UHGV virus genome: UHGV-0064883
Source: a virus
Strand: one strand, 5' to 3'
Length of the DNA stretch: 64,000 bases
The position numbers and the translations under genes are program-made. Under the pieces are notes generated by a model. It was given only the letters and a program-made list of their open reading frames with translations, was not told the origin of the DNA and ran no database searches. Position 1 is the first letter of the stretch. Each line of letters starts with the position of its first letter. This document shows positions 1,438 to 41,207 of the stretch, piece by piece.

Positions 1438-2324
1438 TTTTCCTTTTCCCCTCTTTTTTACTCTTCCCGCCTGTCCCGATTGCCGGAATCCCCCAGTAGT
1501 GAGTTCCGCGCCTGCTGGGTTTTCAAAAATTCTTTCCAGTAGTGCTCATACGGCCTGTTCGGCTGCGACCGGATAATTTCTCTGCAAATCCGCGCATTTT
1601 TCAGCAGGCTTTCCATGCCGGAAATCATTGCGGTGTCTGGATGCTCTTCTGTCATATCTGCGGGAGATTTCCCTGGCCCAAATCGGCGGGAAGACAGCCG
1701 TGGACGACCCTCACCACTACTCCCCCGGAACGATCGAATACGGAAAAGTAGTATTAAACCTCGCCTGCCTGACAGCCGTCCTTCTGGAAACGTGGGAAGC
1801 CCAGCGTTCATTGAGCGGAGGGGAAAAATCCAAAGACCGGAAACCGGACGACGCGGAATCCGCAGCAGGCCCATTCGGAGCTTGACCCGTACCCCCCCCG
1901 CATACAATACCGCATAGCCTACACCTCGACATGATATATGCTTTCGGCGCAGGACAACGAAAGCCTCCGGTGGAGGCTGATTCAGATGAATGTAATCGTC
2001 GTCTGGTTTTACCTCCTGCGGCTCCGGGATTCCGGAATCTGGAACAAACACCTGCAGCAGAAGCTGGACGACACGGAACTCGTCTTTTTAATCATCAAAT
2101 GGTACATGTGGTACATGCCCGTTCTGTTCCCCGCCTGATTGCGGGTGGCGAGATGAGATAAAATGATGGGCCGCGCGGAAAAAACGTGTAAAACGTGTAA
2201 AACATGTAAAATATGTGCAGTGCATGTATGCAGGGGGGACATATCGCGCGCAGGCGCGGATGCGTAAAGGCATGCGGCCCTACCCCCCCCTATGAAAGTA
2301 AATAAATAAAGAAAAAAATCGGAA

Positions 2325-3080
2325 ATGCACGCCTATTTGCTCTACACACCGGGGGAAATGCTGGAAGGCGAAGACGAACTTACCGCACTGGGCTACCATG
2401 TCCATCCTTTTTTGGGCAATAATGATACGTCCGGCCTCCGGAACAAAGTCAAACACATTCCCAGCCTGGGGCATTCCGCGTCCTATTTATCAGACGGACT
2501 GGGCTACAACTGGTGCGGCCACGTCCATGCGCTCCGCGCCAACTTTGCAACCATGCTGGAAACTTACATGGATGCGGACGACCTTACTATATATGGAGAG
2601 TCGGACTGCGTGCCCGCGCCTTATCCCCCTGTGTCCGCCGACGATATTTCCTGTGTTTGTCAAGAAGCGGTTTCCCGGCATCCTGAAATCGGCATCATCC
2701 GTCTGTACCGCCGCGCCACACTATTTAACGAGCCTACCTGGTGGAACCATGCGCCCCTTGAGATTGTCCCGCTGAAAAAGGCGGCCAGAATCTCCAACAT
2801 TCCTTTTACGAAATATTACTGTCAAACCCACGCCCTGATTATCCGCAGGCACGTCCGCCAAACGGTCATCGACGCCATGCGGGATTATTATTTGCCCATT
2901 GACGTGCTCCTATCTTATTTGTCCCAGATTGGGACCGTGCCCGTGTGGCACACCAGCATCAACCTAATGCTTCAACGCCCCCACAGCACGGGAAAGAGGC
3001 TGGCGGACTGGCAGCGCAAACATTCTGTTCCGGCAGCGGACTATTGGCGCGACAGGCCCGGACTGACTGGAAAAAGGTAG
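2325..3080 (+). CDS. Identical second copy of the 251-aa protein; repeat copy B
   Basis: Identical translation to 656..1411. Confidence 0.55.
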   Translation: MHAYLLYTPGEMLEGEDELTALGYHVHPFLGNNDTSGLRNKVKHIPSLGHSASYLSDGLGYNWCGHVHALRANFATMLETYMDADDLTIYGESDCVPAPYPPVSADDISCVCQEAVSRHPEIGIIRLYRRATLFNEPTWWNHAPLEIVPLKKAARISNIPFTKYYCQTHALIIRRHVRQTVIDAMRDYYLPIDVLLSYLSQIGTVPVWHTSINLMLQRPHSTGKRLADWQRKHSVPAADYWRDRPGLTGKR

Positions 3081-3089
3081 GTGCACAAA

Positions 3090-3106
3090 TTTGCAATCAT
3101 TGCAAA
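3090..3106. promoter_or_regulatory. 17-bp palindrome TTTGCAATCATTGCAAA (copy in repeat B)
   Basis: Identical to 1421-1437. Confidence 0.8.
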
Positions 3107-3126
3107 TTTTCCTTTTCCCCTCTTTT

Positions 3127-3324
3127 TTACTCTTCCCGCCTGTCCCGATTGCCGGAATCCCCCAGTAGTGAGTTCCGCGCCTGCTGGGTTTTCAAAAATT
3201 CTTTCCAGTAGTGCTCATACGGCCTGTTCGGCTGCGACCGGATAATTTCTCTGCAAATCCGCGCATTTTTCAGCAGGCTTTCCATGCCGGAAATCATTGC
3301 GGTGTCTGGATGCTCTTCTGTCAT
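3127..3324 (-). CDS. Small hypothetical protein (65 aa) from an ATG at 3324; same sequence in copy A at 1458..1655
   Basis: Coding-like codon usage, MTEEHPDTAMISGMESLLKNARICREIIRSQPNRPYEHYWKEFLK... It is convergent with the 251-aa gene across the palindrome at 3090. Confidence 0.3.
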   Translation of the reverse strand: MTEEHPDTAMISGMESLLKNARICREIIRSQPNRPYEHYWKEFLKTQQARNSLLGDSGNRDRREE

Positions 3325-3380
3325 ATCTGCGGGAGATTTTAATAAAAAAAGTTCATTTAAGAAAGATTTTTTCTCACTTT

Positions 3381-5557: not shown

Positions 5558-5574
5558 TTTGCAATCATTGCAAA
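5558..5574. promoter_or_regulatory. 17-bp palindrome TTTGCAATCATTGCAAA followed by a T7 run
   Basis: 18 nt after the stop at 5540 and upstream of the sulfation operon. Confidence 0.8.
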
Positions 5575-5624
5575 TTTTTTTCGCACTCTCATGAGTGCGT
5601 GGATTGAAACTGCAACACCAGCCT

Positions 5625-6290
5625 ATGAGCGTTTTTACCTATCCGGTCGAGGGCCTTCGCCGCGTGCTGATTCCGCAGAAATGCGGCTGGACGCTAGCCT
5701 GGGATTCCCTCCCCCGCTGGAACGGTCGGGTGGTGATTGACTCCAATGACTACCCCGCGAAAAATCTGGACTGCATGTTTGTCAGGGAGCCGGTGGCCCG
5801 GTTCATGTCCGCTTTCCGGAACAAGATAGAGTTCGGGCCGCAGTCCTACCCCAAAAACGCCAACGGTCAGTTCAACGTCTGGTCCGGCATCCAATGGGTT
5901 GCCTGTGTGTGCGGCATCCCCCCGGACCTGGTGCAGAAGCAGGTTACTGTGTCCCTGATGCTGGACGTGTTGGAGGACATCATCAAAAAAAAACCGAGGG
6001 CGGCGCAATACAACCACGCCGTACTTGACCTGCACTGGTCCCCGCAGGTCTATCATGTGGCCCCCGGCCATATTCCGGAACTGCTCATTGACCCCCGGAA
6101 CGATTTTTCCGTCCTGGACAGATTAAAAATTGACTACTCTACGCACAATCACAATAATACCAGCCGTTATGGAGGCTACCAGCCTACACCGGAAGAGGTC
6201 GCACGCATCAAGGCCCTGTATGCCGAGGATGTAGCACTTTACGCCAGATACCAGCATGATTACGCCCTTCGCCAGTTACCCGCCCAGTGA
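5625..6290 (+). CDS. Sulfotransferase, PF03567-like (Sulfotransfer_2 family)
   Basis: IPQKCGWT matches the 5'-PSB PAPS-binding motif (P-K-x-G-x-T). MFVREPVARFMSAFRNK matches the 3'-PB motif (V-R-d-P-x-x-R-x-x-S-a-Y/F-r-n-K). Start taken at the first ATG, 5625; the ORF opens at GTG 5595. Confidence 0.7.
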   Translation: MSVFTYPVEGLRRVLIPQKCGWTLAWDSLPRWNGRVVIDSNDYPAKNLDCMFVREPVARFMSAFRNKIEFGPQSYPKNANGQFNVWSGIQWVACVCGIPPDLVQKQVTVSLMLDVLEDIIKKKPRAAQYNHAVLDLHWSPQVYHVAPGHIPELLIDPRNDFSVLDRLKIDYSTHNHNNTSRYGGYQPTPEEVARIKALYAEDVALYARYQHDYALRQLPAQ

Positions 6291-7107
6291 CGCCCCGGAG
6301 TTCATCAAATACTCCCACCACCTGATTGACCTCGCCTTGAGAAAAGCCCGGCGTCCGGCCATCCTCTGTTCCTACGGCAAGGATTCCGGCGTTGTCCTGC
6401 ATTTGCTCTCCCAGCACGTCGATTTATCCCGCATCGACGTTATTTACATTGATTCCACTTTTGAATTCCCGGCGTTTTACAAGCACATTGCCGGGATGAA
6501 AGCCTTTTTCGGCATCCGGCACGGCGGCCCTCATGACGTGCACTGCCAGAATAACCAGGCCATCCGTTCCGGCATGTCCTACGACAACACCCCGGTGCTC
6601 AAGTTGACGCAGACCCTGAAAACCGACGTATTGGTGCAGGTGCTGAAAGAGCGAAATATTGACTTTCTGTTCACCGGCATCCGGCGCGACGAAGAGGGTT
6701 CCCGTGCCAAGGAACGCTATTTCTCCTACCGGGAAGCCGACGGCACGTTTGACCCGGTAAGCAACCGCCCCGGATTCTATCCGCTGGACGGGCTGGATGT
6801 GCAGTCCCCCGGTTCCGGGCATTACCGCGTCAATATCCTTCTGGGCTGGTCGGAGCGGGACGTGTGGGAATACACGGAAAAGCACCTGCTTCCCGTCTGC
6901 CCGCTGTACCTTGCCAAAGACGGAAAGCGCTACCGCTCCCTTGGAGACGAGCCGGTGACTACTCCGGTGGATTCCGACGCTGACAGCATCGACAAAATCA
7001 TCAAGGAGCTGTACCATACCAGCGTGCCGGAACGGGCATGCCGGAAATCACAGGACAATTCCGCGCCGTACGCAATGGAGATGCTGCGGCGCAAGGGATT
7101 CTGCTAA
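6256..7107 (+). CDS. cysD: Sulfate adenylyltransferase subunit 2 (CysD; PAPS-reductase/PP-loop family)
   Basis: LCSYGKDSGVVLHLL (PP-loop SxGxDS), FTGIRRDEEGSRAKERYFSYRE, LGWSERDVWEYTEKHLLPVCPLY and RSLGDEPVTTPV align closely with the bacterial CysD blocks [49 protein letters not shown]...VPLY and RTLGCWPLTGAV. Confidence 0.85.
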   Translation: MITPFASYPPSDAPEFIKYSHHLIDLALRKARRPAILCSYGKDSGVVLHLLSQHVDLSRIDVIYIDSTFEFPAFYKHIAGMKAFFGIRHGGPHDVHCQNNQAIRSGMSYDNTPVLKLTQTLKTDVLVQVLKERNIDFLFTGIRRDEEGSRAKERYFSYREADGTFDPVSNRPGFYPLDGLDVQSPGSGHYRVNILLGWSERDVWEYTEKHLLPVCPLYLAKDGKRYRSLGDEPVTTPVDSDADSIDKIIKELYHTSVPERACRKSQDNSAPYAMEMLRRKGFC

Positions 7108-7137
7108 CAGTTCCATTTTTTCCTTTCCGCTCTTGCC

Positions 7138-7860
7138 ATGATACCGGATGACCCGTTCACCCAGCCGGAAAAAAAACCTGAAAAGCCGGGAGGCATCACG
7201 CAAATCTGGATAGGCGGAGAAGATAATATACCGCAGGAAATGCGGGAATGGATGTCCGGGGTGCGGGCCTACTGCAACCAGTTCAACCTTCCGTACCGCT
7301 GTTTGAACGGGAGGCAATGCAAGGCTCTGCTGGATGAGTTCGGCATCCCGTTCAATCCTACCGGGGGCATCATGAGCCTGACCGACATGGCGCGGGTGTG
7401 TGCCCTGAAAAAATGGGGCGGCTGGTATCTGGACACAGACGTAAAAATCCAGCGTCCGGCAGCCTTCCATGATTACTCGGTTTCTGTCTGCGAACAGGAG
7501 CCTTCTACTGTTTTTTACAATGCCATCACCTACGGCTGGATGTACAATCACGGAGTGCTTTATGCCTCCGGGGACGATTCCTGCCTGTTCCTGGATGCCA
7601 TGCTGGACGCGTGCCGGGAGACGTACAAGACAGTCCATGCTTCCGATTCCGGGTGGGGGCTGGAAAGCACCGTTCAGAATATGGTGCATCATGACCGCCA
7701 ATGGGTAGGCTGGCATCAAGGACTGCCAAAGGGCGTTTGCGATTGCGGCAATCCGTCCAGCATGATTAACCATGTGCTTTATGGGACCTGGTACAATAGC
7801 GCACACATGACTCCCGGCATCAAGGACGCGGAAACTTATTCAAAGGTTTCCGATTTGTAG
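7138..7860 (+). CDS. Glycosyltransferase, GT32-like (Och1/TcdA-type DXD sugar transferase)
   Basis: WIGGE...LTDMARVCALKKWGGWYLDTDV matches the GT32 signature (sD..R...L.k.GG.Y.D.D). Confidence 0.7.
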   Translation: MIPDDPFTQPEKKPEKPGGITQIWIGGEDNIPQEMREWMSGVRAYCNQFNLPYRCLNGRQCKALLDEFGIPFNPTGGIMSLTDMARVCALKKWGGWYLDTDVKIQRPAAFHDYSVSVCEQEPSTVFYNAITYGWMYNHGVLYASGDDSCLFLDAMLDACRETYKTVHASDSGWGLESTVQNMVHHDRQWVGWHQGLPKGVCDCGNPSSMINHVLYGTWYNSAHMTPGIKDAETYSKVSDL

Positions 7861-7909
7861 TCCGGAATAATTTTTGCAAAAAAGAAAAAACAATGGTAAT
7901 ACGTAGCGC

Positions 7910-8761
7910 ATGCCACGTGAAAAAATCATCATTGCCGTGTGCGGAATCCCTGACACGGGAAAAAGCACTTTTATCGCCAACGCCGCGAAACACCTGAACG
8001 GAATGGAGGTCCAGCCGGATGCCCTGTGCGTAGAGCAGCAGACCGGGAAAACCATTGCAACCTCATTCATCACCACCTGGGGCGAAGAGTGGCAGCGGGA
8101 CGGAAAAACCTGCGATTTGGTCTTTGTGGACTGCCCCGGCCATGTGCAGTTCCTTCCGGAGATTGTCGCGGGCTTGTCTGCGGCCCATGCCTACATTGTC
8201 ATCCATGACGCTTCCCGCATTGAGGCGAGCCAGGCATATGCCCGGATGCTGGAAGATGTCGCAGGCGTGCTTGGCGTGCCTCGGCTCGCCACCCTCTACA
8301 GCCATTGCGACAGCACCGGGGAATACTGCTACAACGTGGGTGTTGACAACCGGCTTCCGGGAATTGCCGAAAGGGTTATCCGGCGTGCCCTGGCGGGCGG
8401 CAAAGATAAGCTGGTTCATCCCACGGCATCCTGGCTTGGCTACATCCGGCAGGAGCCGTTCGATACGCCTGATGCCCGGCACAGGGTGTCCGTCATCTGG
8501 CTTCCCTGCGCTTCCCGGCTCACTCCGGTTTCCCTTCTCCGGGCAGAGCTTCCCGACCGAACGGTCGAACTCGGAGAGGCTGGCTCCGTTCTAGACCCCA
8601 TCCCCAGGGAAAGCGACTTCCAGACCGCCCCATTGATACGGCACATTTACCTGCAATTCCCTGTCCGGTATCTGGACCCCGTGCGCTTCCTGATTTGCGA
8701 CTCGGAGCTGGGAACGGTCGGAGTCGGAACAGTAACCCCGTGGGAAACCCAAATGTTATGA
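7910..8761 (+). CDS. CysN/EF-Tu-like GTPase (283 aa; truncated, divergent putative sulfate adenylyltransferase subunit 1)
   Basis: G1 CGIPDTGKST and G3 DCPGHVQF (DxPGH) match translation-factor/CysN GTPases. No canonical NKxD motif. Adjacent to cysD. Its stop overlaps the next start (ATGA). Confidence 0.55.
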   Translation: MPREKIIIAVCGIPDTGKSTFIANAAKHLNGMEVQPDALCVEQQTGKTIATSFITTWGEEWQRDGKTCDLVFVDCPGHVQFLPEIVAGLSAAHAYIVIHDASRIEASQAYARMLEDVAGVLGVPRLATLYSHCDSTGEYCYNVGVDNRLPGIAERVIRRALAGGKDKLVHPTASWLGYIRQEPFDTPDARHRVSVIWLPCASRLTPVSLLRAELPDRTVELGEAGSVLDPIPRESDFQTAPLIRHIYLQFPVRYLDPVRFLICDSELGTVGVGTVTPWETQML

Positions 8762-8979
8762 GCAACGTAGCTATCCCATACCAGCCCCACGACTGCCCCG
8801 TCTGCGGAAAGAACCTCTGCTACAGCGCCGGAAAGGACGGCTGCTATTATTCCTGCCCGGAATGCAGGTATTCCGTCCAGTCCGGTGCGACCCTGCAAGA
8901 AGCACAAAGGCATCTTTTCATCTTTGCGGCGGCAGTCCTCAAAAACCAGAACACGCAACACGACACCATCACCCAATGA
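8758..8979 (+). CDS. Small zinc-ribbon protein (73 aa)
   Basis: CPVCGKNLCYSAGKDGCYYSCPECRY contains two CxxC pairs. ATGA overlap with the upstream gene and with cysC downstream. Confidence 0.5.
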   Translation: MSNVAIPYQPHDCPVCGKNLCYSAGKDGCYYSCPECRYSVQSGATLQEAQRHLFIFAAAVLKNQNTQHDTITQ

Positions 8980-9479
8980 TTATTCTTCTCACCGGCGAAA
9001 GCGGCGTCGGAAAAACGTCTGTGGCAAAAACCCTGATGAACCGGCATCCGGGCATCCTTCTCGACGGCGACGACATGCGGGACGGATTGAACAGCGACCT
9101 TGGGTTTTCCGACCAGGACATCATGGAGAACATGCGCCGGGCGGCGCACATAGCCGTACTGCTGCATGACCAGCTTCCGGAAGACCGGCGCACGGTTTAC
9201 ATCACCTGCATTGCCCCGCTGCTGGCCGGAAGGAATCTGGTGCATGAGCTGTGCGGTTCCCGGTTGTGGGAGATTCGCATCCAGTATGATTACCGGGCTT
9301 CCGACGACGTAAAAGGGTTGTACAAGGCGGGAACCCCCATGCGGGCCTACGAAGAGTACCCCAGCGAAACGTTGCTGCTCCCCCGCCGGATAAACCGCGT
9401 GTACCGGTACTACAACGATACCGTGTGCGCTCTGGCCGCCAAAATAGAAAAGCTGTGGCCTGCGGACAAAACCGCTTGA
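8976..9479 (+). CDS. cysC: Adenylylsulfate (APS) kinase CysC
   Basis: ILLTGESGVGKTSVAKTL (P-loop), LLDGDDMRDGLNSDLGFSDQDIMENMRRAAHIA and KGLYKAGTPMRAYEEYP match the APS-kinase motifs TGLSGSGKST, LDGDNvRhGLnkDLgFsdeDR.ENiRR and KGLYkkAr.g....FTGi. Confidence 0.9.
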   Translation: MIILLTGESGVGKTSVAKTLMNRHPGILLDGDDMRDGLNSDLGFSDQDIMENMRRAAHIAVLLHDQLPEDRRTVYITCIAPLLAGRNLVHELCGSRLWEIRIQYDYRASDDVKGLYKAGTPMRAYEEYPSETLLLPRRINRVYRYYNDTVCALAAKIEKLWPADKTA

Positions 9480-9547
9480 CAAAGGCGTATCCGTCCCTGT
9501 ACATTACCCCTGTTTTGGAGCATTCCTGACAGGATGTTTCTAGGTTT

Positions 9548-9588
9548 CTCCCTTCCCTTGGCGCTCTAAGGGGAGGGAGTTTTTTTTG
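9548..9588 (+). terminator. Rho-independent terminator closing the sulfation operon
   Basis: Stem CTCCCTTCCC...GGGGAGGGAG followed by T8. Confidence 0.85.
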
Positions 9589-9615
9589 CGCTGATGTCCG
9601 TATCTTCCGCCCCAA

Positions 9616-9632
9616 TTTGCAATGATTGCAAA
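9616..9632. promoter_or_regulatory. 17-bp palindrome, centre-G variant TTTGCAATGATTGCAAA, followed by T7
   Basis: Read directly from the sequence. Confidence 0.8.
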
Positions 9633-9654
9633 TTTTTTTCGGCAATCCTGAATT

Positions 9655-14392: not shown

Positions 14393-15781
14393 ATGAGATT
14401 TCTTCCCTCTCTTTTTAGGCGGAAAGGCCACGAACAGCGATTGTCCGTAGCATGGAACAGTCTGGATTCCCGCCAACGGTCGGTCCTCATGGAACTCGCG
14501 TCCTATCTCGGCAACGGCATTGACGGGGACCGGACAAACCTCCGGTATATTGACCTGGTGAACCATGTCCGGGTTGACCCTCTGGACAGCTATGAAAAGT
14601 ACATCAAAACAGGGACCGGCCAGGTATGGGCGACGTTTGTAGCCTGCAATCTGGTGGCTAATGTTTTGGTGTCAACTACGTTCCAGGTTGTCAAATCCGG
14701 CTCCGATACGCCCCTTGACAGCACACGCCACCCGCTGGCAAAGCTAATCGCGCAGCCGAATGAGTGGGACTCGTGGGAGGACTTAATCTATCAGTGGGTG
14801 TTCCACATCAAACTGACCGGCAACGCGTACTGGTTAAAAAACCAGGTCAACGGATACGGGCAGCCCCTGGAACTGATTCCCCTGCTTCCGCAGTACGTCA
14901 AAATCATTCCTGACCAGACTTCCAGAATCAAGGAATACCAATACCAGGTCAATGGCCTGTGCATTACATACGCCCCGGAAGAAATTATCCATTTCCGGAG
15001 GCCCCACCCCAATTCCTTCATCCTTGGTCTGGGAGATATTGAGCCGTCAAAGTCATTGTATGAATCCTTTATTACCGGGGACGAGCTTCAAAAGCGGGTG
15101 TACTCCAATGGGGCCGTCATCAGCGGCGTATTGAGCAATGATTCCGATTTGCTCTCACAGGAGGAATTTGACCATGCCGTGGAGAGCTTCCGCTCCAAAT
15201 ACGAGGGGAAGAAAAACGCGGGAAAAACGGCGTTCCTTTCCGGCAAATGGAACTATACCCGGCTCGGAATGACCAACAGCGAGCTTCAAAGCCTTGAGCG
15301 GGACAAAACCAGCGTTGAGCAGATATTCATCAATCACGGGGTTCCCCTTTCCGTTGCGGGCATCAAGGACGCGGCCAACTACGCCACATCCAAGCAGGAC
15401 GCTATCGCGTTCCGGAAACAGGCATGCCTTCCGCTGGCCGATATTCTTGTAGGCAAATTGAACTCGGAAAAAGGGCTGACACCCGCCTACCGGGATAAAA
15501 CCCTGAAAATCGACTATAACATGTCTGGCCTCGTGGACATTGAGCAGATGGTGAAGGAAAACCAGCCGTTGCTGGAATCCGGGGCGCTTACTCCGAACGA
15601 ACTCCGGGAAAAGTGCGGCCTGTCCAGAGTTGACGACCCTTATCTTGACCAGTATTTCATCAAGTCGAATCTGGTTCCTATGGAGCTGTCCGGGATGGGC
15701 ATGGGAGAGTCGCTGGAAGAAAGCGCCCGAACGGTCGTGACCGGATTCGCCAAATCCCGTTGCGGCGGCCACCCGCATTGA
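14393..15781 (+). CDS. Portal protein (HK97/SPP1-like; assigned by position and overall composition)
   Basis: 462-aa ORF immediately upstream of the head-morphogenesis gene. Size and position are typical of portal proteins. No motif was computed. Confidence 0.55.
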   Translation: MRFLPSLFRRKGHEQRLSVAWNSLDSRQRSVLMELASYLGNGIDGDRTNLRYIDLVNHVRVDPLDSYEKYIKTGTGQVWATFVACNLVANVLVSTTFQVVKSGSDTPLDSTRHPLAKLIAQPNEWDSWEDLIYQWVFHIKLTGNAYWLKNQVNGYGQPLELIPLLPQYVKIIPDQTSRIKEYQYQVNGLCITYAPEEIIHFRRPHPNSFILGLGDIEPSKSLYESFITGDELQKRVYSNGAVISGVLSNDSDLLSQEEFDHAVESFRSKYEGKKNAGKTAFLSGKWNYTRLGMTNSELQSLERDKTSVEQIFINHGVPLSVAGIKDAANYATSKQDAIAFRKQACLPLADILVGKLNSEKGLTPAYRDKTLKIDYNMSGLVDIEQMVKENQPLLESGALTPNELREKCGLSRVDDPYLDQYFIKSNLVPMELSGMGMGESLEESARTVVTGFAKSRCGGHPH

Positions 15782-23518: not shown

Positions 23519-23676
23519 TTTTATTGACGGCCTACTGCCCCTTTGTTAGTCAAACGTTAAGCACATGCGTATTTTTTACATGCAGCGCGTCCAGAAATCC
23601 GCGAAAGTACGGCGGCTGTCTGTGAGGAATGATTGCAGCATTTTCGCTTAACAGTCTAACCGCTACAAAAAAAACA

Positions 23677-25335
23677 ATGTTGACCGAAGAACAGAAAAAG
23701 CGCCTTGCCGCTCTCCATATTAAGGATGCCGCAGCCCTCACCGAACAGGAACAGAAGGAACTTGCCGCGCTGACCACTATGGCCGAAGTGGACGGGTTGT
23801 CCATTGACGACGCCTTTATGGCACAGTATGGCCCTACCGAAGACCGCCCCCTGACCGGCGACGAGCTGAAAAAGCACATTTCCGACGCCGTAACCGAGGG
23901 CCTGAAACACTACTCCGGGAATATGGACGTGTCCAAGCTGGCCGAGGAAATCACGAAAAGCCTGAACATTCCGGACACCGGGAAGGGGATTGCCCCCGAA
24001 GACCTGAAATCCGCGGTGGCTTCCGCCCTCAGCGCAGAAGCTATCATTGAGAGCTTGCAAAGCAAGCTGCCCACCGTACCGGGCGAGGACCAAATCAAGA
24101 AACTAGTGGAAGAAGTTGTGAACGCTAACCTGCGCAACCAGTCCAAGAACTTTTACCCCGTTGATGAAGACATCAACGTGCCGCTTTCCGGCCACAAGGG
24201 CAACCTGTCCGTGGCAGAATACCAGCTTCTGAACATCTGCAAGATGACCGGCAAGGTTATCGACGCGAAAAACGTTCCCACGGACATCAATGACGGCATC
24301 CCCGAATCCGTCCGGAAGTCCGCTGAACAGGCCGGGGCCAAGTTCGTTCAGTCGCTGAGGATGGGCCGGAAGGATGTGTTCACCACCGGCGACGGGCACA
24401 TCTTCCCGTCTGACCTGTCCAGCACTCTGCTTTACAGGCTGTATCTTGAGTCCCAGTTGGCCGCCGCACTGATTTCCCAGGAAATCCCGATGCCGACCGA
24501 CCCGTACACGCTGCCTATTGCCACTACCCGCATCAAGTACCGCAAAGGTTCCGAAGCCCCGGCTACTACGACTGCGGATAAAATCGGTCTGTCCGACGTT
24601 ACGCTGAAAACGGCGAAACTTATCGGCATCACCGATTTCTCCTATGAAGCGGCCGAAGATTCCATCATTCCGGTGCTTCCCATGCTCATGGATGACCTGG
24701 CCAAAGGTGCGGTGGAATCCCTGGAAAACGCCATCATCAATGGCGACACGGCGACAACCCACCAGGACAAGGACACCACGGCAGCCGACGATGCCGCCAA
24801 GCTGTTTGACGGCCTCCGCAAGTTCGCCTTGGCGCAAGCTTCCTGCAAGGTTGACATGGCAACCGGCGGCATCTCCGCCGCGTCCATTCTCAAAATGAAA
24901 GCCTCTATGGGCAAATACGGCCTGCGCCCCTCCGACCTGCTTCTGGTCGTGTCCGCCTCCGGCTACAACACCATGCTTGGGCTGGATGAGACGCTGACCG
25001 TGGACAAGGCGGGGCCGGGGGTCGCAAGAATCCTTACTGGCGTTGTGCCGTCCATCTACAACATCCCGATTATTGTGTCGGAAGCCATCAAGGCCACCAA
25101 CACCTCCGGCGTTGTGGATGCCACGGACACCAACAACATCAAGGATTCCCTGCTTCTGCTCTACAAGCCGTCGCTGATTCTCGGTTCCCGACGAGGTTTC
25201 ACCGTGGAATCCGAAGTGGACAAGAAGCGCCAGGTCAACAGCCTGATTGCTTCCTTCCGCAGGGACTTCAAGCTTAAGGAGCCGCTTTCCAGTGCGCCTA
25301 CGGTCATTCTCGGCTACGGTGCGCCCATCCTGTAA
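23677..25335 (+). CDS. Major capsid protein, HK97 fold, with an N-terminal coiled-coil (delta-like) region
   Basis: 552-aa ORF with an N-terminal MLTEEQKKRLAALHIKDAAALTEQEQKELAAL coiled coil. The C-terminal region has the alternating hydrophobic/G-rich blocks typical of Phage_capsid proteins (LKMKASMGKYGLRPSDLLLVVSASGYNTML...IVSEAI...LLLLYKPSLILGSRRGFTVE). A strong terminator follows. Confidence 0.8.
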   Translation: MLTEEQKKRLAALHIKDAAALTEQEQKELAALTTMAEVDGLSIDDAFMAQYGPTEDRPLTGDELKKHISDAVTEGLKHYSGNMDVSKLAEEITKSLNIPDTGKGIAPEDLKSAVASALSAEAIIESLQSKLPTVPGEDQIKKLVEEVVNANLRNQSKNFYPVDEDINVPLSGHKGNLSVAEYQLLNICKMTGKVIDAKNVPTDINDGIPESVRKSAEQAGAKFVQSLRMGRKDVFTTGDGHIFPSDLSSTLLYRLYLESQLAAALISQEIPMPTDPYTLPIATTRIKYRKGSEAPATTTADKIGLSDVTLKTAKLIGITDFSYEAAEDSIIPVLPMLMDDLAKGAVESLENAIINGDTATTHQDKDTTAADDAAKLFDGLRKFALAQASCKVDMATGGISAASILKMKASMGKYGLRPSDLLLVVSASGYNTMLGLDETLTVDKAGPGVARILTGVVPSIYNIPIIVSEAIKATNTSGVVDATDTNNIKDSLLLLYKPSLILGSRRGFTVESEVDKKRQVNSLIASFRRDFKLKEPLSSAPTVILGYGAPIL

Positions 25336-30345: not shown

Positions 30346-33300
30346 ATGGCCCAGGCGAATCAACAGGCGGAGCGTATTATTTTTGACGCGGAAATTTCTT
30401 CCGCGCAGTCAAACCTGGCAAAACTGCGCACGGAATTAAATCTGATAGTGGCGGCGGCGGCAAAGACCAATGCCGCCCTTTCACGGATTAACCTGTCTGG
30501 GATGTTTGGCGGGGCCGGGGCGTCAGGAAAAGGGCTTTCCGGAATGGCGGGCGGCGTAAACGCGTCAAAGACATTTGCCGCAGCGCAGAATGCCGCCACC
30601 ATGTCAACAAACAGGCTGACCACAGCTATGCGGGCCGGGGTAGGCACGGCTGGAGCCTACAGCAGGGCATTGGCCGGGGCCGCCGCATCAGCCGGGCTAT
30701 TGTCCGGAAGCCGTATCGGCCAGACAATCAATACGGCGAGAGCGCCTATGCGCGGGGCCAAAGCGGAATCTGACGGGCTGCGTTCCAGCTTTTCCGGCGT
30801 AGGGCTTGCGGCTACAGGGGCCGCCGTGGCGGTGCTGGGCTTTGCTACCAAGCTCACGGGCATCATCCGGGAATCTTCGGAAGCCGCATCCAACATGCAG
30901 CAGCTGAATACTGTTTTTGGTGTATTGCTGCAAAGCCAGTCCAAAGGCTCTGCACTTCTCGAAGAGGTCACGCAGTTTGCCGCTGCCACGCCTATGAAGG
31001 TTCCGGAATTGGCCAATGCTACGCGAGTTTTGCTGGCCTACGGCGAAAGCTCCACGACTGTCATGAGCACTCTCCGGAGGCTGGGCGATATTGCGGCCGG
31101 TACGGGACAGCGCATTGATGAAATCGCCACCCTTATCGGTAAGGCGCGGCAGGCTGGCCGCCTGTACGGTGACGACCTGAACCGCCTGAATGACCGCGGC
31201 ATTCCTCTTACTGCTACATTGGCGAAAAATTTCGGCATCACCAGCATGGAAGTCCGAAAGCTGGTGGAGCAGGGGCGGGTAGGGTTTTCCGCGCTGGAAG
31301 ACGCTATTAACGAAGTAACCAACGAGGGCGGCCTTTTTTACGGCATGCTGGAAAAGCAGTCCAAAAACTATGGCGGCGTGATGTCCACGTTGGAAGATAA
31401 TATTACTCTGGCGAAAAAAGCATTTGGCGCACCTATCAATAACGCCCTGACGCCTATCCTGCAGGATGCCATTGAAATGCTCAAGGAAATGAAGCCCCAG
31501 TTTACCGAGCTGGGTGAGGCAATGGCCCCAGTAGTCGCCAGTTTGGTCACGGCGTTCAAAGACCTTGTCGTCTGGATTGGCGAAAACGGGAAGCAGGTTT
31601 TGGACCTTGTGCAGACCTACGGCCCCCTTGTGGCTAAGGCTCTGGCATTGGCGGCAGCAGTCAAAGCCGCCCAAATGGTGTTTGGCGCTCTTGGCGCCAT
31701 TATCCGGGGGATTACCGGAACCTTAAGCGGGTTTACGTCAATAATCACCACAGCCGCTTCGGCGGTGATAAACCTGGGTTCCACCCTTGACCGTCTTGCG
31801 GCTAAATATGCAACTGCCGGAGTGGCGGCCAGGACCGCAGGGGCACAAATAGCCGCCTCTTCCGCAATGATGGGGGCTGCTTCCGCAGGTGCTGCCGCCG
31901 CAGGGGCTGGCAGAGCTGGTGGAGTTGTCGGGGCCGGAATTGCCGCCGCAGGAGCCGCTGCACCAGCCATAGGGTCGGCGATACGCGGTCTTTCCACCGG
32001 CTCAAAAGTGTGGTCAGTGGTAAAGGGTGTAGGAGGCAAGCTGGGAGGAATACTTGGCCCTCTTACCGCACTGCATGTTTTAGGTAAAGTTTCTGATGGC
32101 CTGTTTTCCGGCGACGCTCCATTGTCCTGGGGAGCCAAGCTTAATTATGGGATAGCCGGCGCTCTTGGCCTGGCAAGCTTCATCCCCAAAATCGGATGGA
32201 TTACCGGCCCCCTGGGCGAGTGGTTTGCGTCAATGGGCGACGACATCAAGGAGGCGGACACGGCGAAATACATGCAGGGCCAGTATTCACAGGCGCTTAA
32301 ATCCGCCCCCGGCAAGGGCCTTAAAAACGTTTACCGGAAACAGCTGCTCAATTTGTTCCAGTCGGAAGAATCCGGGACGCGGGGCGACCGGACGGTTTCC
32401 TCCGTGCAGGAAGAACTGCGGCAGGAAATCTCAAGGCAGACTGCAATACTTGATAAACAACTCCGCGATAACACGGCTATTTCCGACGGGCAAAAAGCTT
32501 TGCTCAAGCGCCGCCTTGAATACCTCCGGAGCATTGACGACGCCACCATATCGCGGTGGACGGAACAGCTGCTTGACGAGACGAAGAACGCGGCTGGACG
32601 GGCCAAGTATGATGCGGTCATCGCCGCCGAGCAGGAAGCCGCCAGACGGGCGAATGAGGAACGGAGAGCCGCCGAACGTTATGGTCAGGTCAAGGACAAC
32701 CGCGTTAAATTACAGGAAGCGGAAATCAGGTACGCGTCCGGAATAGACCAGCAGATGTTCTGGTGGCGCAGGCGGCGGACGGCATTGCAGGAAGCGCAGC
32801 CTGACGTTCAAGCGCTGCTGACCGGCCCGGACACCGGAGCTTACATGACGGAAAAGCTTGGAGCCGATTTCCGCATCCGGGGGACCGAAGACATTAAAAA
32901 AGTGCTGGATGCGGCAGGGGAATCCGAAGACACGGTAATTTTTGCCAGCGAAAATGTGCTGAACCTCCAAAAAGCCTACGAGAAAATTCTCGACTACGAA
33001 AAAGAAGAGAAAAAACTCCGGGATTCCAAGCAGGAATACGACAGGCAGGAGGAAGAGCGGACGCGAAGCCTCAACGTGCTTAAACAGAAACTCTATCTTG
33101 ACCAGGCTTACGCCGCAGGGCTTATCAACGCGGAACAGCGAACACAGTATGAAGACCAGCTCAAGGCTATTGACGCGGCAAAATCTTTCATGGATGCCGG
33201 CATGGACCGGGAGGAAGCCATGCAGATGGGCGTGGCTTCGGTGGAAGCCGAACGGAGGGCGGCGGGGCAGGCCGCCATTGACAACGCGGCGGAAACCTAT

Positions 33301-33534
33301 AAATCCGCCGCTACGGGAACCCTTGCACGACAGGGCTGGGTGGATGTTATTTCACTGGGCTGGCGCAAGGATTCCGCCGGGGCGTATCTGGACCCGAACC
33401 GTTATGACGAACAGACCACCGGCCCCTATCAGGACGAGGACACGGATTTGTTGAAAAAAATCAACGATACGCTGGAAGCCATTCAGGCGAATACCAACCC
33501 CGACCTGAAAAAGTCCTCGGTTGTGTGGGGATAA
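30346..33534 (+). CDS. Tail tape measure protein (1062 aa)
   Basis: Length, an Ala/Gly-rich coiled-coil/TM-like central region, and the conserved TMP block GITSMEVRKLVEQGRVGFSALEDAINEVTNEGGLFYGMLEKQSKNYGGVMSTLED. Confidence 0.85.
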   Translation: MAQANQQAERIIFDAEISSAQSNLAKLRTELNLIVAAAAKTNAALSRINLSGMFGGAGASGKGLSGMAGGVNASKTFAAAQNAATMSTNRLTTAMRAGVGTAGAYSRALAGAAASAGLLSGSRIGQTINTARAPMRGAKAESDGLRSSFSGVGLAATGAAVAVLGFATKLTGIIRESSEAASNMQQLNTVFGVLLQSQSKGSALLEEVTQFAAATPMKVPELANATRVLLAYGESSTTVMSTLRRLGDIAAGTGQRIDEIATLIGKARQAGRLYGDDLNRLNDRGIPLTATLAKNFGITSMEVRKLVEQGRVGFSALEDAINEVTNEGGLFYGMLEKQSKNYGGVMSTLEDNITLAKKAFGAPINNALTPILQDAIEMLKEMKPQFTELGEAMAPVVASLVTAFKDLVVWIGENGKQVLDLVQTYGPLVAKALALAAAVKAAQMVFGALGAIIRGITGTLSGFTSIITTAASAVINLGSTLDRLAAKYATAGVAARTAGAQIAASSAMMGAASAGAAAAGAGRAGGVVGAGIAAAGAAAPAIGSAIRGLSTGSKVWSVVKGVGGKLGGILGPLTALHVLGKVSDGLFSGDAPLSWGAKLNYGIAGALGLASFIPKIGWITGPLGEWFASMGDDIKEADTAKYMQGQYSQALKSAPGKGLKNVYRKQLLNLFQSEESGTRGDRTVSSVQEELRQEISRQTAILDKQLRDNTAISDGQKALLKRRLEYLRSIDDATISRWTEQLLDETKNAAGRAKYDAVIAAEQEAARRANEERRAAERYGQVKDNRVKLQEAEIRYASGIDQQMFWWRRRRTALQEAQPDVQALLTGPDTGAYMTEKLGADFRIRGTEDIKKVLDAAGESEDTVIFASENVLNLQKAYEKILDYEKEEKKLRDSKQEYDRQEEERTRSLNVLKQKLYLDQAYAAGLINAEQRTQYEDQLKAIDAAKSFMDAGMDREEAMQMGVASVEAERRAAGQAAIDNAAETYKSAATGTLARQGWVDVISLGWRKDSAGAYLDPNRYDEQTTGPYQDEDTDLLKKINDTLEAIQANTNPDLKKSSVVWG

Positions 33535-34389: not shown

Positions 34390-36870
34390 ATGGCATTACG
34401 GCGAGTACGAAGAGGGGAACCCCTGCGTATTGGACAGATTAACCAGTACGCCGAACTTCTTGGGCAGATGGCCGGGGGCGGAAAACTTTTCCGGGCTAAC
34501 AGGACCGGCTACCAGATGGACCGGGACCTGAACCCCCTGTTCCCGTTTGAGTTGATGGCCCTGGATGCCCAGTCAAGCACCGGGGAAGCTACAAAAGGCG
34601 TGCCGCTGGCGAAATCCAAGGATTTAATTGCGTTTCTCCACCCCGGTTCCGTCACGTTTATCGGACTGGACGGCGCAGCCTCACAGGTGTTCCCGGTCAT
34701 CAAAGACCCGAAATACGCCCCTACGGATTCCCCCGGCGGAGGAAACGAGGATGGAGCCGCCGTCAATACCTGGCCCCGCCCCGGTATTCAAATTGAGCTT
34801 GATACGGTATATGGCATTCATCTGTTCGCTAAATTGGAGCGAGTGACGATGCAGATAGGCCGTGACCGGATAATTCAGGTGTCGGTCAAGAAATGGTGTC
34901 GTGACCGCACCCCGTTCATCGGCACGGAGGACGAAATGGACAGCTCCGCTTCGGACGATGAAGATATTATCCGGACGTTCATTCCATTGTTCCGGCCCAT
35001 TGAAGACAGCGCAATCGAAGGAAATGTTTATGTGGAAAACCTGCATGAAAGCGATTTAATTCTTCCGGACATTCCGCTTGAAGGCGGGTCATCATCTTCC
35101 TCAGCGTCCTCTTCATCCAGCAGCTCCAGTAGTTCGAGCGGCGGAGTATCATTCAGCAGTTCAAGCAGCTCATCATCATCAAAATCAGAGGGTTCGGAAT
35201 CCGCATCTTTTTCCTCGTCTTCGTCGTCGGCAGGCCCCTACATTGACCCTACATTGATTTCCGTGCCGGCGCGGGAACCCAATTCGGAATTCGGCGGCAT
35301 CTACCGCACCCTGAAAGGCTTTAATTTTCCGCCCAGCGATGACAAGCCGGGCATGGCCTACATCATCATTTTCAGCCCTGTCGAATCTTGCGATTGGGTA
35401 AACTTTTCCACAGCCGGATTGGTGGTAACCAAGACGGACAAACAATGGGAAGGCTATGTTGCCATTGACGACAACGGGAACTGGGATTGCAACGTCATCA
35501 TTGACGAATTCACCGACCCGGAACATACCGGTGTCCACCGCTACAAAGATTTCAAAGTCGGCTACCGGGCTAAAAAGCAGAACATAGCCGTAGATATTCT
35601 CATTGTTGACCAGGCGCCCCCGGAAGCGTCCTCTTCCTCGTCTTCGTCGTCTGTGAGTTCATCTTCGGAAGAAAAGTATTATTTCCGGTTTGTCCCTAAT
35701 AAAATTACGGTGGACAGCCAATTTCAGAAAGTACAGGGCTATATCCGCACCGACTCCCCCTACGGGTGGAAAATCCCGGAGGACTTTCCGGCGCAGTTCC
35801 CTTCCGGGAAATGGGTATCTATTTCCCCGCTGACCGGGAAAGACCACGATAATTTTGAGGTTACGTTCCAGAAAAACGAGGAAGGGACCACCCGCGACAA
35901 TCTGGTAACAGGGTACGCATTGACCTCGCACGGCACATTGATGCTGGAAGCAACCGACACCCTGAATGTCACCCAGACCCCGGAAGCCTCTTTATCCAGC
36001 AGTTCCAGTAGTTCGAGCAGTTCCTCTTCATCTTCCTCGTCTTCCTCATCTTCCTCTTCCGGCTCGTCAAGCTCGTCCCAGGCGGACTGGTTTGAAGTGT
36101 TCCCCACTTCTATGGCTTTTAGCGCGGACGGCAAGCCAAAAGATTCTAACAAGGTAAGGCTTCGCGGAACGGTCGGATGGCGGGCTGATACGCAAAAAGA
36201 CTGGTGTTCCATGTCCCCGTCATCAGGCCCAGCGCCAGGGGACGCGGGAACGGAAGCCGTGATAACCTGCCAGCCGAACAAGGAGGTAAACGGAAGAAGC
36301 ACACTGGTTGAAATTAGCGTCACCCTGAATGGGTCCCCGCAATATTACTACGTCAATGTTATCCAGGAAGGCAATCCTCCTGTTCCTTCGTCGGAAAGCG
36401 AATCTTCCTCATCCTCGGAAGCCTCTTCGGGGGCCAGTTCGGCTTCATCAAGCAAAACCGCCATTTTGCCGGTGCGCGGAAAGTTCCTCGGCATGATGTG
36501 CATGGAGTCCCCGGAAACCTGGTTTATCGACTTTGCCACTATCCACCTCCCGCTTGGGCTGATGTTGGTTGACCAGACGTTCATTGATGTTACCGAGCCG
36601 GGTTCCATAGCGGTTGTGTCCGCCATAGATGACCGGGGCCGCCCCGCAAGAGCATGGCTGCGGCTGGAAGGCGGGGAAAAGAAATATCTGACCCTGTATG
36701 CCCGTCCGCAGGGGTTGGGCCGGATATTCAGGCCGGACCGCATTACCGTCCAACTGATAGGGAGGCGCCTCGGACACCGGAGCAGGTTCCCGGAATTTTC
36801 AGAAGCGCAGTTCCGGGCGAACGAAGCGTTCTACGCCCAGGCGCACAGGGAGAAAACCCCGAAAGATTAA
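34390..36870 (+). CDS. Tail fibre / receptor-binding protein with BACON-like domains and four poly-serine linkers
   Basis: Ser tracts are encoded at about 35097-35235, 35626-35665, 35992-36085 and 36395-36455. KDWCSMSPSSGPAPGDAGTEAVITCQPNKEVNGRSTLVEISVTLNGSPQYYYVNVIQEG and GKWVSISPLTGKDHDNFEVTF resemble BACON (DWlsvsp.sG.g....vtv.a..N.....R.a.itv......vtvtQ.g). Confidence 0.6.
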   Translation: MALRRVRRGEPLRIGQINQYAELLGQMAGGGKLFRANRTGYQMDRDLNPLFPFELMALDAQSSTGEATKGVPLAKSKDLIAFLHPGSVTFIGLDGAASQVFPVIKDPKYAPTDSPGGGNEDGAAVNTWPRPGIQIELDTVYGIHLFAKLERVTMQIGRDRIIQVSVKKWCRDRTPFIGTEDEMDSSASDDEDIIRTFIPLFRPIEDSAIEGNVYVENLHESDLILPDIPLEGGSSSSSASSSSSSSSSSSGGVSFSSSSSSSSSKSEGSESASFSSSSSSAGPYIDPTLISVPAREPNSEFGGIYRTLKGFNFPPSDDKPGMAYIIIFSPVESCDWVNFSTAGLVVTKTDKQWEGYVAIDDNGNWDCNVIIDEFTDPEHTGVHRYKDFKVGYRAKKQNIAVDILIVDQAPPEASSSSSSSSVSSSSEEKYYFRFVPNKITVDSQFQKVQGYIRTDSPYGWKIPEDFPAQFPSGKWVSISPLTGKDHDNFEVTFQKNEEGTTRDNLVTGYALTSHGTLMLEATDTLNVTQTPEASLSSSSSSSSSSSSSSSSSSSSSSGSSSSSQADWFEVFPTSMAFSADGKPKDSNKVRLRGTVGWRADTQKDWCSMSPSSGPAPGDAGTEAVITCQPNKEVNGRSTLVEISVTLNGSPQYYYVNVIQEGNPPVPSSESESSSSSEASSGASSASSSKTAILPVRGKFLGMMCMESPETWFIDFATIHLPLGLMLVDQTFIDVTEPGSIAVVSAIDDRGRPARAWLRLEGGEKKYLTLYARPQGLGRIFRPDRITVQLIGRRLGHRSRFPEFSEAQFRANEAFYAQAHREKTPKD

Positions 36871-36898
36871 CCTTCCCTGCCTTCCGGGGGCCTCCGGC

Positions 36899-37267
36899 CT
36901 ATGCCCATATAACATTCCCCAGCCGGGAAATATCCACCGCCTTTTTCCCGGCGCGCATAGCCGCCCTCAGTTCCCCGTAGTTCCTGCGGATTTCGTGCGT
37001 TACTGGGTAATCCCGGAACACGTTGATATAATTCAGCCACCGTTCCTTTTGCGTGTACACCGCCGAATCTTTTATTATGTAGATTGTTGCGCTTTCATCA
37101 ATTTTCCTGTCCGGGAGGCACGTGCAGCAATACCACTGATACCACTCATGAATGAGGTACACTGTATTAAAGCCGCGCAGGGTCATGACAGCCGTATCAG
37201 CGATATATTTGGGGGCCAGATTAAAAAGCTGCTCTTTGGTCAGTTCAATTTTCTTTGGTGCTTTCAT
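36899..37267 (-). CDS. Hypothetical protein (122 aa), one of only two credible minus-strand genes
   Basis: ATG ORF. The minus strand carries a TTTTTATCTTGCAAT promoter-like box (plus coordinates 37306-37320), and it shares the palindrome at 37341. Confidence 0.5.
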   Translation of the reverse strand: MKAPKKIELTKEQLFNLAPKYIADTAVMTLRGFNTVYLIHEWYQWYCCTCLPDRKIDESATIYIIKDSAVYTQKERWLNYINVFRDYPVTHEIRRNYGELRAAMRAGKKAVDISRLGNVIWA

Positions 37268-37305
37268 TGTATCTTGATGCCTTCATCATAGCTATCTTTT
37301 TAAAA

Positions 37306-37320
37306 ATTGCAAGATAAAAA
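37306..37320 (-). promoter_or_regulatory. Minus-strand copy of the TTTTTATCTTGCAAT promoter-like box
   Basis: Plus strand reads ATTGCAAGATAAAAA. Confidence 0.5.
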
Positions 37321-37340
37321 TACACATTCCGCGAGAAAAA

Positions 37341-37357
37341 TTTGCAATCATTGCAAA
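37341..37357. promoter_or_regulatory. 17-bp palindrome TTTGCAATCATTGCAAA between divergent genes
   Basis: Read directly from the sequence. Confidence 0.8.
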
Positions 37358-37410
37358 TTTCAGAAATCAATGTTGCCCATGAAAATTCAGGCGGCTATAG
37401 TGTCAAAGAC

Positions 37411-38463: not shown

Positions 38464-38485
38464 TTCTTTTTCCACGCACATTACT

Positions 38486-40848: not shown

Positions 40849-41199
40849 ATGAAAAACCTTCCGCAAATCGTCAAGGACAGTTGGCGCGATATTATCGCTT
40901 TTTTGCTCATTGGCATTTTTCTCTCCATTGGCGTGGAATACCTGATTCGCCTCTCGGTCATCATGGACGTTACCGGGGCAGCTTCCTTCATCGCCTTGCT
41001 GCAGGGCTTCACCAAGTTTGCCGGGGCCAATCTCTGCGCATGGCTGCTGGGAGCCAATGTGGCCTTCCCGTACATTTCCCGTTGGGCCAGATTCGACTTC
41101 AATGCGACCTGGCGCACGATGGAGGGGTTCCGGAAAGTCCAATGCTTCCTCGCGGTTGCCATCGGGGAATTGCTCATGGCCGCCATCTGCTTTGCCTGA
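40849..41199 (+). CDS. Holin-like membrane protein (116 aa, about 3 TM segments)
   Basis: Hydrophobic segments IIAFLLIGIFLSIGV, AASFIALLQGF and LAVAIGELLMAAICFA. Immediately upstream of the endolysin. Confidence 0.45.
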   Translation: MKNLPQIVKDSWRDIIAFLLIGIFLSIGVEYLIRLSVIMDVTGAASFIALLQGFTKFAGANLCAWLLGANVAFPYISRWARFDFNATWRTMEGFRKVQCFLAVAIGELLMAAICFA

Positions 41200-41207
41200 T
41201 ACGCCCC

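Follow-up and report, generated by a model that had tools for sequence, protein, structure and literature searches.

The locus at positions 5558-9590 of the virus genome UHGV-0064883 raises the question of whether a phage can encode an entire route from sulfate to a sulfate ester and, if so, which molecule would be sulfated. In the 64-kb stretch of this genome that was analyzed as a whole (hereinafter, the window), the locus consists of six genes on the plus strand, for a sulfotransferase, a CysD-like protein, a putative glycosyltransferase resembling family 32 (GT32-like), a short EF-Tu/CysN-like GTPase, a zinc-ribbon protein and an adenosine 5'-phosphosulfate (APS) kinase, all found where the initial annotation of this sequence had placed them. 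The set reads as a pathway leading from sulfate to APS, then to 3'-phosphoadenosine 5'-phosphosulfate (PAPS) and finally to a sulfate ester. Judging from the sequences, it is predicted with considerable confidence that the cassette makes PAPS and sulfates something. The more specific reading favored here, namely a self-contained sulfation pathway of the phage with a glycan as the acceptor, is given a probability of about 60%; within it, we infer the enzyme activities, the partnership of CysD with the short NTPase, the nucleotide used by the latter, the identity of the acceptor and the advantage gained by the phage.

The six genes form one transcription unit, as indicated by gene overlaps and by a strong terminator that closes the cassette. 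The CysD-like gene overlaps the sulfotransferase gene by 35 nt, and 4-nt ATGA overlaps join the GTPase gene to the zinc-ribbon gene and the latter to the APS kinase gene. The intrinsic terminator on the plus strand (9548-9587) comprises a 14-bp stem (9548-9579) with 8 G-C pairs and a 4-nt loop, followed by T8. No membrane segments are predicted in any of the six products. The five genes compared with strain L006 (83-96% related) are under purifying selection, with dN/dS values of 0.05 (CysD), 0.18 (both the GT32-like protein and the GTPase), 0.30 (zinc ribbon) and 0.08 (APS kinase, CysC), compared with 0.03 for the portal gene; the sulfotransferase gene, which is frameshifted in L006, was left out of this comparison.

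The sulfotransferase (5625-6290, plus strand) is a soluble protein of 221 aa that is assigned to the Sulfotransfer_2 type by Pfam match, motifs and fold. It matches PF03567 with an E-value of 4.2e-7 and 30.8 bits against a gathering cut-off of 22, and its relatives from other lineages likewise match this family. The identifiable motifs are Lys19 of the 5'-phosphosulfate-binding motif (5'-PSB; IPQKCGWT), Arg54...Ser62 of the 3'-phosphate-binding motif (3'-PB; VREPVARFMSAF) and an invariant His137 in HWSPQ; R54, P56 and S62 are invariant in nine family members that are 27-84% identical to the window protein. The predicted structure has the sulfotransferase fold, with the heparan sulfate 6-O-sulfotransferase, a carbohydrate sulfotransferase, as the best structural neighbor; a phmmer search against the PDB sequences returned no match. 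The family is tiny, with 16 of 1.84 billion representative proteins matching at E <= 0.001. The gene contains an A9 homopolymer (5985-5993, plus strand) that is shortened to A8 in four related contigs from one study series (L006-L009), causing a frameshift and a truncated enzyme of 165 aa, with the downstream codons still conserved. A second homopolymer, A8 at 7169-7176, is located within the GT32-like gene. The A9/A8 difference might reflect on/off switching by slipped-strand mispairing, slippage during transcription or an error in sequencing.

The CysD-type small subunit of ATP sulfurylase (6256-7107, plus strand; 283 aa) contains a PP-loop (SYGKDS), the RRDEEGSRAKER motif and a CysD-type C-terminal tail ending in GFC. 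The match to Pfam PAPS_reduct has an E-value of 3.9e-29, and among the NCBIfam models the CysD subfamily is clearly preferred (1.2e-49 vs 7e-19 for the PAPS reductase model). The match to the Pseudomonas syringae CysD structure (1zun_A; E 1.6e-28) extends in two stretches over residues 20-282 and includes the C-terminal tail that is found in CysD only. The window protein is 50-57% identical to the CysDs of cassettes from other lineages and 33-41% identical to ordinary bacterial CysD; the cassette CysDs are 50-72% identical among themselves and, by sequence, comprise a separate branch that is always paired with the short GTPase. In IMG/VR, CysD of the cassette type was found in two lineages only. 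The APS kinase (8976-9479, plus strand; 167 aa) contains a P-loop (GESGVGKT), the LDGDDMRDGLNSDLGFS motif and KGLYK; it matches Pfam APS_kinase (PF01583) with an E-value of 3.4e-19 and 69.8 bits against a cut-off of 21.1, and is 39% identical to Escherichia coli CysC over 125 aa, with the P-loop and LDGD...GLxxDLGFS motifs aligned. The score is below the NCBIfam equivalog cut-off (68.8 vs 138.7 bits), partly because the protein is short.

The short GTPase (7910-8761, plus strand; 283 aa) is the most unusual component. It matches Pfam GTP_EFTU with an E-value of 3.2e-12 and, in an alignment with five other short GTPases and E. coli CysN, keeps G1 (GIPDTGKS), the switch I Thr and G3 (DCPGH). In the G4 position, SHCD replaces NKxD (SHS in relatives), and the protein has lost domain II and the greater part of domain III, of which the terminal EF-Tu/CysN motif RFLICD...GVGVG is retained (RFLICDSELGTVGVGTV). 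Identity to the G domain of E. coli CysN is 22%, and the match to the CysN model TIGR02034 is at E 0.0033 (16.5 bits vs a cut-off of 336). A profile search against the PDB retrieves the G domains of LepA, EF-Tu and TetM at E 1e-7, so that its affinity to CysN does not exceed that to these proteins. Its gene lies directly 3' of CysD in L014, L151, L146, L148 and in the Akkermansiaceae locus described below, and the GT32-like gene is inserted between the two in the window; the short GTPase is presumed to be the partner of CysD. The guanine specificity appears doubtful from the motifs, and the protein may not couple GTP hydrolysis in the manner of CysN; given that NKxD and most of domains II and III are gone, a GTP-coupled sulfurylase activity can only be conjectured.

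These features bring up the alternative that the CysD-like protein and the short NTPase do not constitute an ATP sulfurylase at all but activate some other substrate, with the sulfotransferase and the kinase using host APS or PAPS or a different substrate. Such a possibility is in line with the diverged NTPase, with its being no more similar to CysN than to LepA or EF-Tu, and with the score of the CysD-like protein, which reaches 169 of the 195 bits required by the curated NCBIfam model; furthermore, the PAPS_reduct superfamily includes many enzymes other than sulfurylases, and generic PAPS-reductase-like proteins are common in phages. However, the best matches are specifically to CysD, the subfamily-specific tail included, an APS kinase gene accompanies the pair in five lineages of phages or phage-like elements, and the NTPase keeps the C-terminal motif of EF-Tu and CysN. 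We consider this alternative improbable.

The two remaining genes of the cassette are specific to the phage lineage of the window. The GT32-like putative glycosyltransferase (7138-7860, plus strand; 240 aa) contains QIWIGG and WYLDTDV with the DXD motif. Its match to PF04488 (Gly_transf_sug), at 23.0 bits, just reaches the cut-off of 23 and covers only 29 residues around WYLDTDV; matches to TcdA among the PDB sequences are at E ~1, two homologs are found among 5.8 billion clusters, and the AlphaFold model, built from 3 sequences, has a predicted local distance difference test score (pLDDT) of 38 and is unusable for fold assignment. The zinc-ribbon protein (8758-8979, plus strand; 73 aa) contains six cysteines spaced as CPxC-x4-C-x7-C-x3-CPxC, all of which are invariant in relatives. 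Altogether, profile and structure searches uphold five of the six family assignments made in the initial annotation, with GT32 borderline. For the sulfotransferase, the zinc ribbon and the APS kinase, the searches agree with the original description. The CysD-like protein matches CysD specifically, at a score below the curated cut-off, and the description of the GTPase as a truncated CysN/EF-Tu-like protein is accurate as to its G domain and C-terminal motif but does not make it a CysN ortholog. The glycosyltransferase assignment is supported by the DXD match but is tempered by the threshold score, the paucity of homologs and the poor model.

All close relatives of the phage, on 77-92 kb contigs from human-gut metagenomes and in IMG/VR, have the complete unit of six genes, and a core of sulfotransferase, CysD, short GTPase and CysC is found in at least four further lineages with sulfotransferase identities of 25-33% and GC contents from 0.31 to 0.61. 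The core is encoded in this order in L014/L138 (GC 0.31; viral contigs of 100-173 kb), in L151 and in L146/L147 (GC 0.61), whereas L148-L150 have two sulfotransferases, with CysD, GTPase and CysC on the opposite strand. The conserved core thus consists of these four genes, the GT32-like and zinc-ribbon genes being additions of the window's lineage. L019 (7998-9705) and L154 (7332-9049) contain a reduced version consisting of two sulfotransferases and CysC, without CysD or GTPase, for which APS would have to come from the host; these sulfotransferases are tandem paralogs, accompanied by a possible third sulfotransferase-like ORF on the other strand and a GT11-like gene 2 kb 5'. Thus, of all the cassette proteins, it is the sulfotransferase that accompanies the APS kinase most constantly across lineages. 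Among 50,697 phage records, a blastn search with the cassette region produced no match, and tblastn searches with CysD and CysC produced only bacterial contaminants, CysC of the bacterial type and small unverified fecal fragments; apparently, there is no true counterpart of the cassette among the deposited phage genomes. In word-index searches, nothing beyond the close relatives was retrieved with the sulfotransferase, the GTPase or the GT32-like protein. Recent capture from a host was rejected, the nearest bacterial CysD being just 58% identical. As a separate observation, L154 encodes a protein of 1060 aa in which intein and LAGLIDADG domains are recognized.

Do these genes serve sulfation or rather the assimilation of sulfur? 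Under the latter possibility, they would be ordinary auxiliary metabolic genes that boost assimilatory sulfate reduction by the host and the supply of cysteine during infection. A survey of viral genomes catalogued cysC, cysD, cysN and cysH gene by gene as auxiliary genes of the assimilatory pathway, with most of the viral cysD and cysH in human-associated samples; the word sulfotransferase is absent from this report (Kieft et al., 2021; 10.1101/2021.01.05.425418). In the present case, however, the CysD-like gene is the sole gene of the PAPS_reduct family in the window, no PAPS reductase being found there (about 20-28 kb of the genome lie outside the window); no sulfite reductase is present in the window either, and neither enzyme was called in the 10 kb upstream flank of the relatives. 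The lack of a PAPS reductase points to sulfation as the end use. The sulfotransferase gene, moreover, heads the operon, and it is two sulfotransferases together with CysC that persist in L019/L154. A role in assimilation appears highly improbable. The gene set, the conserved core and the absence of a PAPS reductase all agree with the initial claim of a complete pathway from sulfate to sulfate ester; the GTP-coupled sulfurylase step within it is conjectural.

The nature of the acceptor is suggested primarily by the gene neighborhoods. Carbohydrate-related genes adjoin the cassette in L146, L138, L019/L154 and L151 and also in the window, whose operon includes the GT32-like gene. In L146, a clear GT32 gene is located directly 3' of the cassette (Gb3_synth, E 1.1e-5; Gly_transf_sug, 25.2 bits), GT11-like genes are found near the cassette in L138 as well as in L019/L154, and the flanks of L151 encode a cytidylyltransferase-like protein (similar to CMP-sugar synthetases) and a BACON-domain protein. 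The window itself additionally contains two paralogous GT25 glycosyltransferase genes on the plus strand (37342-38463 and 38486-39526), situated after the tail genes and just before the lysis gene (40881-41900), with matches to Pfam Glyco_transf_25 at E 1.3e-8 and 5.7e-7, to PHROG glucosyltransferase families, and to each other at E 9e-30; preceding them, the tail region encodes a protein of 826 aa in which a carbohydrate-binding BACON domain is recognized (the entire region spans 34390-39526). The GT25 enzymes are possible partners in the building of the glycan, their link to the cassette being conjectural.

A further hint comes from bacteria. Among bacterial sequences, the nearest relatives found for the phage CysD (58% identity) and short GTPase (43%) are encoded on a contig of an Akkermansiaceae metagenome-assembled genome and on contigs from the human gut that are up to 336 kb long. 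In this chromosomal locus (L136, 1-14477 of a 336-kb human-gut contig; also L045, L133, L135, L137 and L139), the gene order is sulfatase, GT4, a 749-aa fusion of GT31, methyltransferase-like and GT11 domains, a Sulfotransfer_2-like protein, CysD, short GTPase and a glycoside hydrolase of family 31 (GH31; 1306 aa, with F5/8 type C and dockerin domains), and suggests that bacteria of this type may make a sulfated, fucosylated glycan. The locus resembles the phage cassette in having the closest CysD and a short GTPase that also lacks NKxD, next to a Sulfotransfer_2-like gene and glycosyltransferases. It differs in being part of a bacterial chromosome, in the neighboring sulfatase and GH31 genes, and in that no APS kinase is encoded within 7 kb; the sulfotransferase, moreover, belongs to another, longer branch (302-307 aa) that can be aligned with the phage enzyme only at the 3'-PB motif.

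A glycan is the best reading for the acceptor, as it is favored by the carbohydrate-related neighbors of the cassette, by the Akkermansiaceae glycan locus and by the carbohydrate sulfotransferases among the structural neighbors of the phage enzyme. Alternatively, the pathway could be real but directed at something other than a glycan, such as a small molecule (a sterol or a phenol), a tyrosine of a peptide or protein, or a base or sugar of the phage nucleic acid. The fold search is unable to tell acceptor types apart, the sulfotransferase is small (221 aa), soluble and without an obvious glycan-binding domain, and the GT32 call is weak. RaxST offers a precedent for tyrosine as the acceptor, and in gut Bacteroides a cluster that combines PAPS synthesis with a sulfotransferase makes cholesterol sulfate (PMC9417993). 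Against this alternative, independent lineages repeatedly have carbohydrate-active genes adjacent to the cassette, as does the homologous bacterial locus, and the best neighbor of the sulfotransferase, by both sequence and structure, is a carbohydrate sulfotransferase. Furthermore, no base hydroxymethylase or other DNA hypermodification gene was detected among the window ORFs scanned, a scan that covered part of the ORFs; DNA hypermodification was set aside as unlikely on this ground. Overall, a non-glycan acceptor seems rather unlikely. The earlier suggestion that the acceptor is a host surface polysaccharide or a virion glycan fits the recurrence of carbohydrate genes beside the cassette, although the acceptor itself is deduced from this context.

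Under the glycan reading, the CysD-type subunit and the adjoining short EF-Tu-like NTPase would adenylylate sulfate to APS, which the APS kinase would turn into PAPS, and the soluble Sulfotransfer_2 enzyme would then move the sulfate onto a hydroxyl group of the acceptor in the cytoplasm of the infected cell. Because all enzymes of the cassette are predicted to be soluble, the acceptor is expected to be accessible from the cytoplasm, and it would most likely be a carbohydrate, namely a lipid- or nucleotide-linked intermediate in the synthesis of a host surface glycan, the core of a lipooligosaccharide, or a glycan on phage proteins prior to assembly. The GT32-like enzyme, and perhaps also the two GT25 enzymes, would build or extend this glycan. 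The phage would supply its own PAPS because the host probably makes little or none.

Several observations weigh against this scheme. Neither a sulfate transporter nor a PAP phosphatase was seen; in the four contigs with the A8 variant, the sulfotransferase is frameshifted and the genes for PAPS synthesis are intact. The loss of NKxD and of domains II and III from the NTPase, with the attendant doubt about its coupling, and the subthreshold score of CysD, both discussed above, belong here as well. The link to glycans is through gene neighborhood, where some of the matches are weak: the assignment to GT32 is the most tenuous of the family calls, being borderline by profile, the GT11 match in L138 is slightly below the cut-off (23.4 vs 23.9 bits), and the Akkermansiaceae sulfotransferase matches its family at E 1e-3.

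The cassette resides in a tailed phage, as indicated by PHROG profile matches to a portal (14393-15781), a major head protein (23629-25335), a tape measure (30346-33534), a DnaB helicase, a family-A DNA polymerase, a helicase and a recombinase. The organization of its transcription units appears to be marked by a 17-nt palindrome, TTTGCAATSATTGCAAA, of which the window contains 19 copies, compared with 0.05 expected by chance, mostly at intergenic sites and nearly all just 5' of genes (starting at 1421, 3090, 5558, 9616, 11815, 16467, 19465, 23502, 29534, 33549, 37341, 40190, 42162, 45136, 51462, 53571, 58763, 62593 and 63446). The palindrome is often followed by T7-CG, could form a hairpin of 7 bp with a 3-nt loop and, in 5 of the 19 cases, is followed about 25 nt further on by a conserved TTTTATCTTGCAATTT...TAnnTT stretch; it resembles a promoter or operator specific to the phage, or the target site of a regulator that the phage itself encodes. 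The copy TTTGCAATCATTGCAAA (5558-5574; with its T-run, 5558-5581, plus strand), 44 nt 5' of the sulfotransferase start, is probably the promoter or operator of the cassette unit, and the next copy (9616-9639, plus strand) lies directly after the terminator and opens the following unit. In the initial annotation, the cassette was delimited by the palindrome and the terminator. The terminator retains this role, but the palindrome at 5558 was ruled out as a boundary element of the cassette proper, since the motif is spread across the window and marks unit boundaries phage-wide.

In the vicinity of the cassette, positions 1-1669 and 1670-3338 of the window are an exact 1,669-bp tandem duplication with zero mismatches that contains a 251-aa ORF twice (656-1411 and 2325-3080). 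This gene is present once in close relatives (L001), and the duplication either arose very recently or is an artefact of the assembly. In relatives, a 182-aa gene with a weak match to LMWPc (low-molecular-weight phosphatase) is located about 3.5 kb 5' of the cassette (L001, 5917-6465; equivalents in L002, L003, L006 and L009); no intact copy is apparent in the window, where the corresponding stretch is the tandem duplication.

Some clues to the host can be gleaned from the window and from the origin of the contigs, which is human gut samples. No tRNA genes are present in the window, and the nearest portal of a cultured phage is less than 28% identical. Shine-Dalgarno sequences are nearly absent (3 weak matches in 30 gene starts sampled), as they are in the Akkermansiaceae loci, a hint at the mode of translation initiation in the host. 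The tetranucleotide usage of the window correlates best with the Akkermansiaceae loci (r 0.80-0.83) among about 100 loci, a set not designed for host assignment. The host is possibly Akkermansia-like; the BACON domain equally fits a member of the Bacteroidota. Combining these hints, one may speculate, quite tentatively, that unrelated lineages of gut phages, that of the window possibly infecting Akkermansia-like mucus dwellers, share a portable, self-sufficient sulfation module with a hitherto undescribed, minimal CysD partner (an EF-Tu-derived NTPase that lost its guanine specificity) and, together with transferases of the fucosyl and galactosyl types, produce sulfated mucin-like glycans on the infected cell or the virion. 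If so, this would be a case of phage-driven mimicry of host glycans or of receptor masking.

Sulfated glycans dominate the gut mucus layer, and bacterially made sulfate esters are rare; no report of sulfate esters made by a phage was found in the literature. If a phage brings the donor pathway together with the transferase, sulfation would join the known means by which phages remodel cell surfaces or virions, with a bearing on receptor masking, mucus adherence and immune recognition. In surveys of metagenomes, viral matches to cysD, cysN and cysC should not automatically be taken to represent sulfur assimilation. The cut-down partner of CysD would be a natural minimal version of the coupling GTPase CysN, that is, a compact system for the nucleotide-driven synthesis of APS, an unfavorable reaction, and could serve in a small PAPS-regeneration module for enzymatic sulfation.

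With respect to novelty, proteins annotated as "sulfotransferase family" exist in cyanophages and giant viruses, with a weak likeness to the model, so that a phage sulfotransferase alone is not new, and viral cysD, cysN and cysC are already catalogued. A full-text literature search, with most subscription journals outside its coverage, found no description of a phage cassette that combines PAPS synthesis with a sulfotransferase. The initial statement that such a module is not established in phages accordingly applies to the coupled cassette, which is the only new element, and not to the single genes.

Among known systems, the rhizobial nodPQ-nodH genes are similar in design: a second copy of CysD (NodP) and a CysN-CysC protein (NodQ) provide PAPS for the sulfotransferase NodH, which sulfates a carbohydrate, the Nod factor. 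As in the phage cassette, a private PAPS supply is combined with a transferase. However, NodQ is a full-length CysN fused to CysC, whereas the phage GTPase is a G domain with a remnant, lacks NKxD and is separate from CysC; the carrier is a symbiosis plasmid in one case and a phage in the other. The bacterial raxPQ-raxST cluster similarly pairs a private PAPS supply with a sulfotransferase, in this case one that sulfates tyrosine. Phage-encoded modification of glycans is familiar from the Gtr/Oac seroconversion genes, which alter surface glycans, and from the glycosylation of mycobacteriophage virion proteins, and the two GT25 genes at the end of the tail module of the window phage are reminiscent of these; none of these systems is known to involve sulfation or to synthesize its own donor. 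The heparan sulfate 6-O- and 2-O-sulfotransferases of the Sulfotransfer_2 family (PF03567) are 17% identical to the phage enzyme and are membrane-anchored animal Golgi proteins with large acceptor clefts, in contrast to the minimal soluble protein of the phage. In the human gut, the cluster BT_0411-BT_0416 of Bacteroides thetaiotaomicron likewise has PAPS-synthesis genes beside a sulfotransferase but, unlike the phage cassette, is chromosomal, includes a proposed sulfate importer, acts on a sterol, and has no reported glycosyltransferase (PMC9417993). The viral genes surveyed by Kieft et al. differ from the cassette, which is a single operon that ends in sulfation and contains no cysH. Thus, compared with the bacterial clusters that combine PAPS synthesis with a sulfotransferase, the phage cassette is distinguished by its carrier, by a cut-down NTPase in place of CysN, and by the association with glycosyltransferases.

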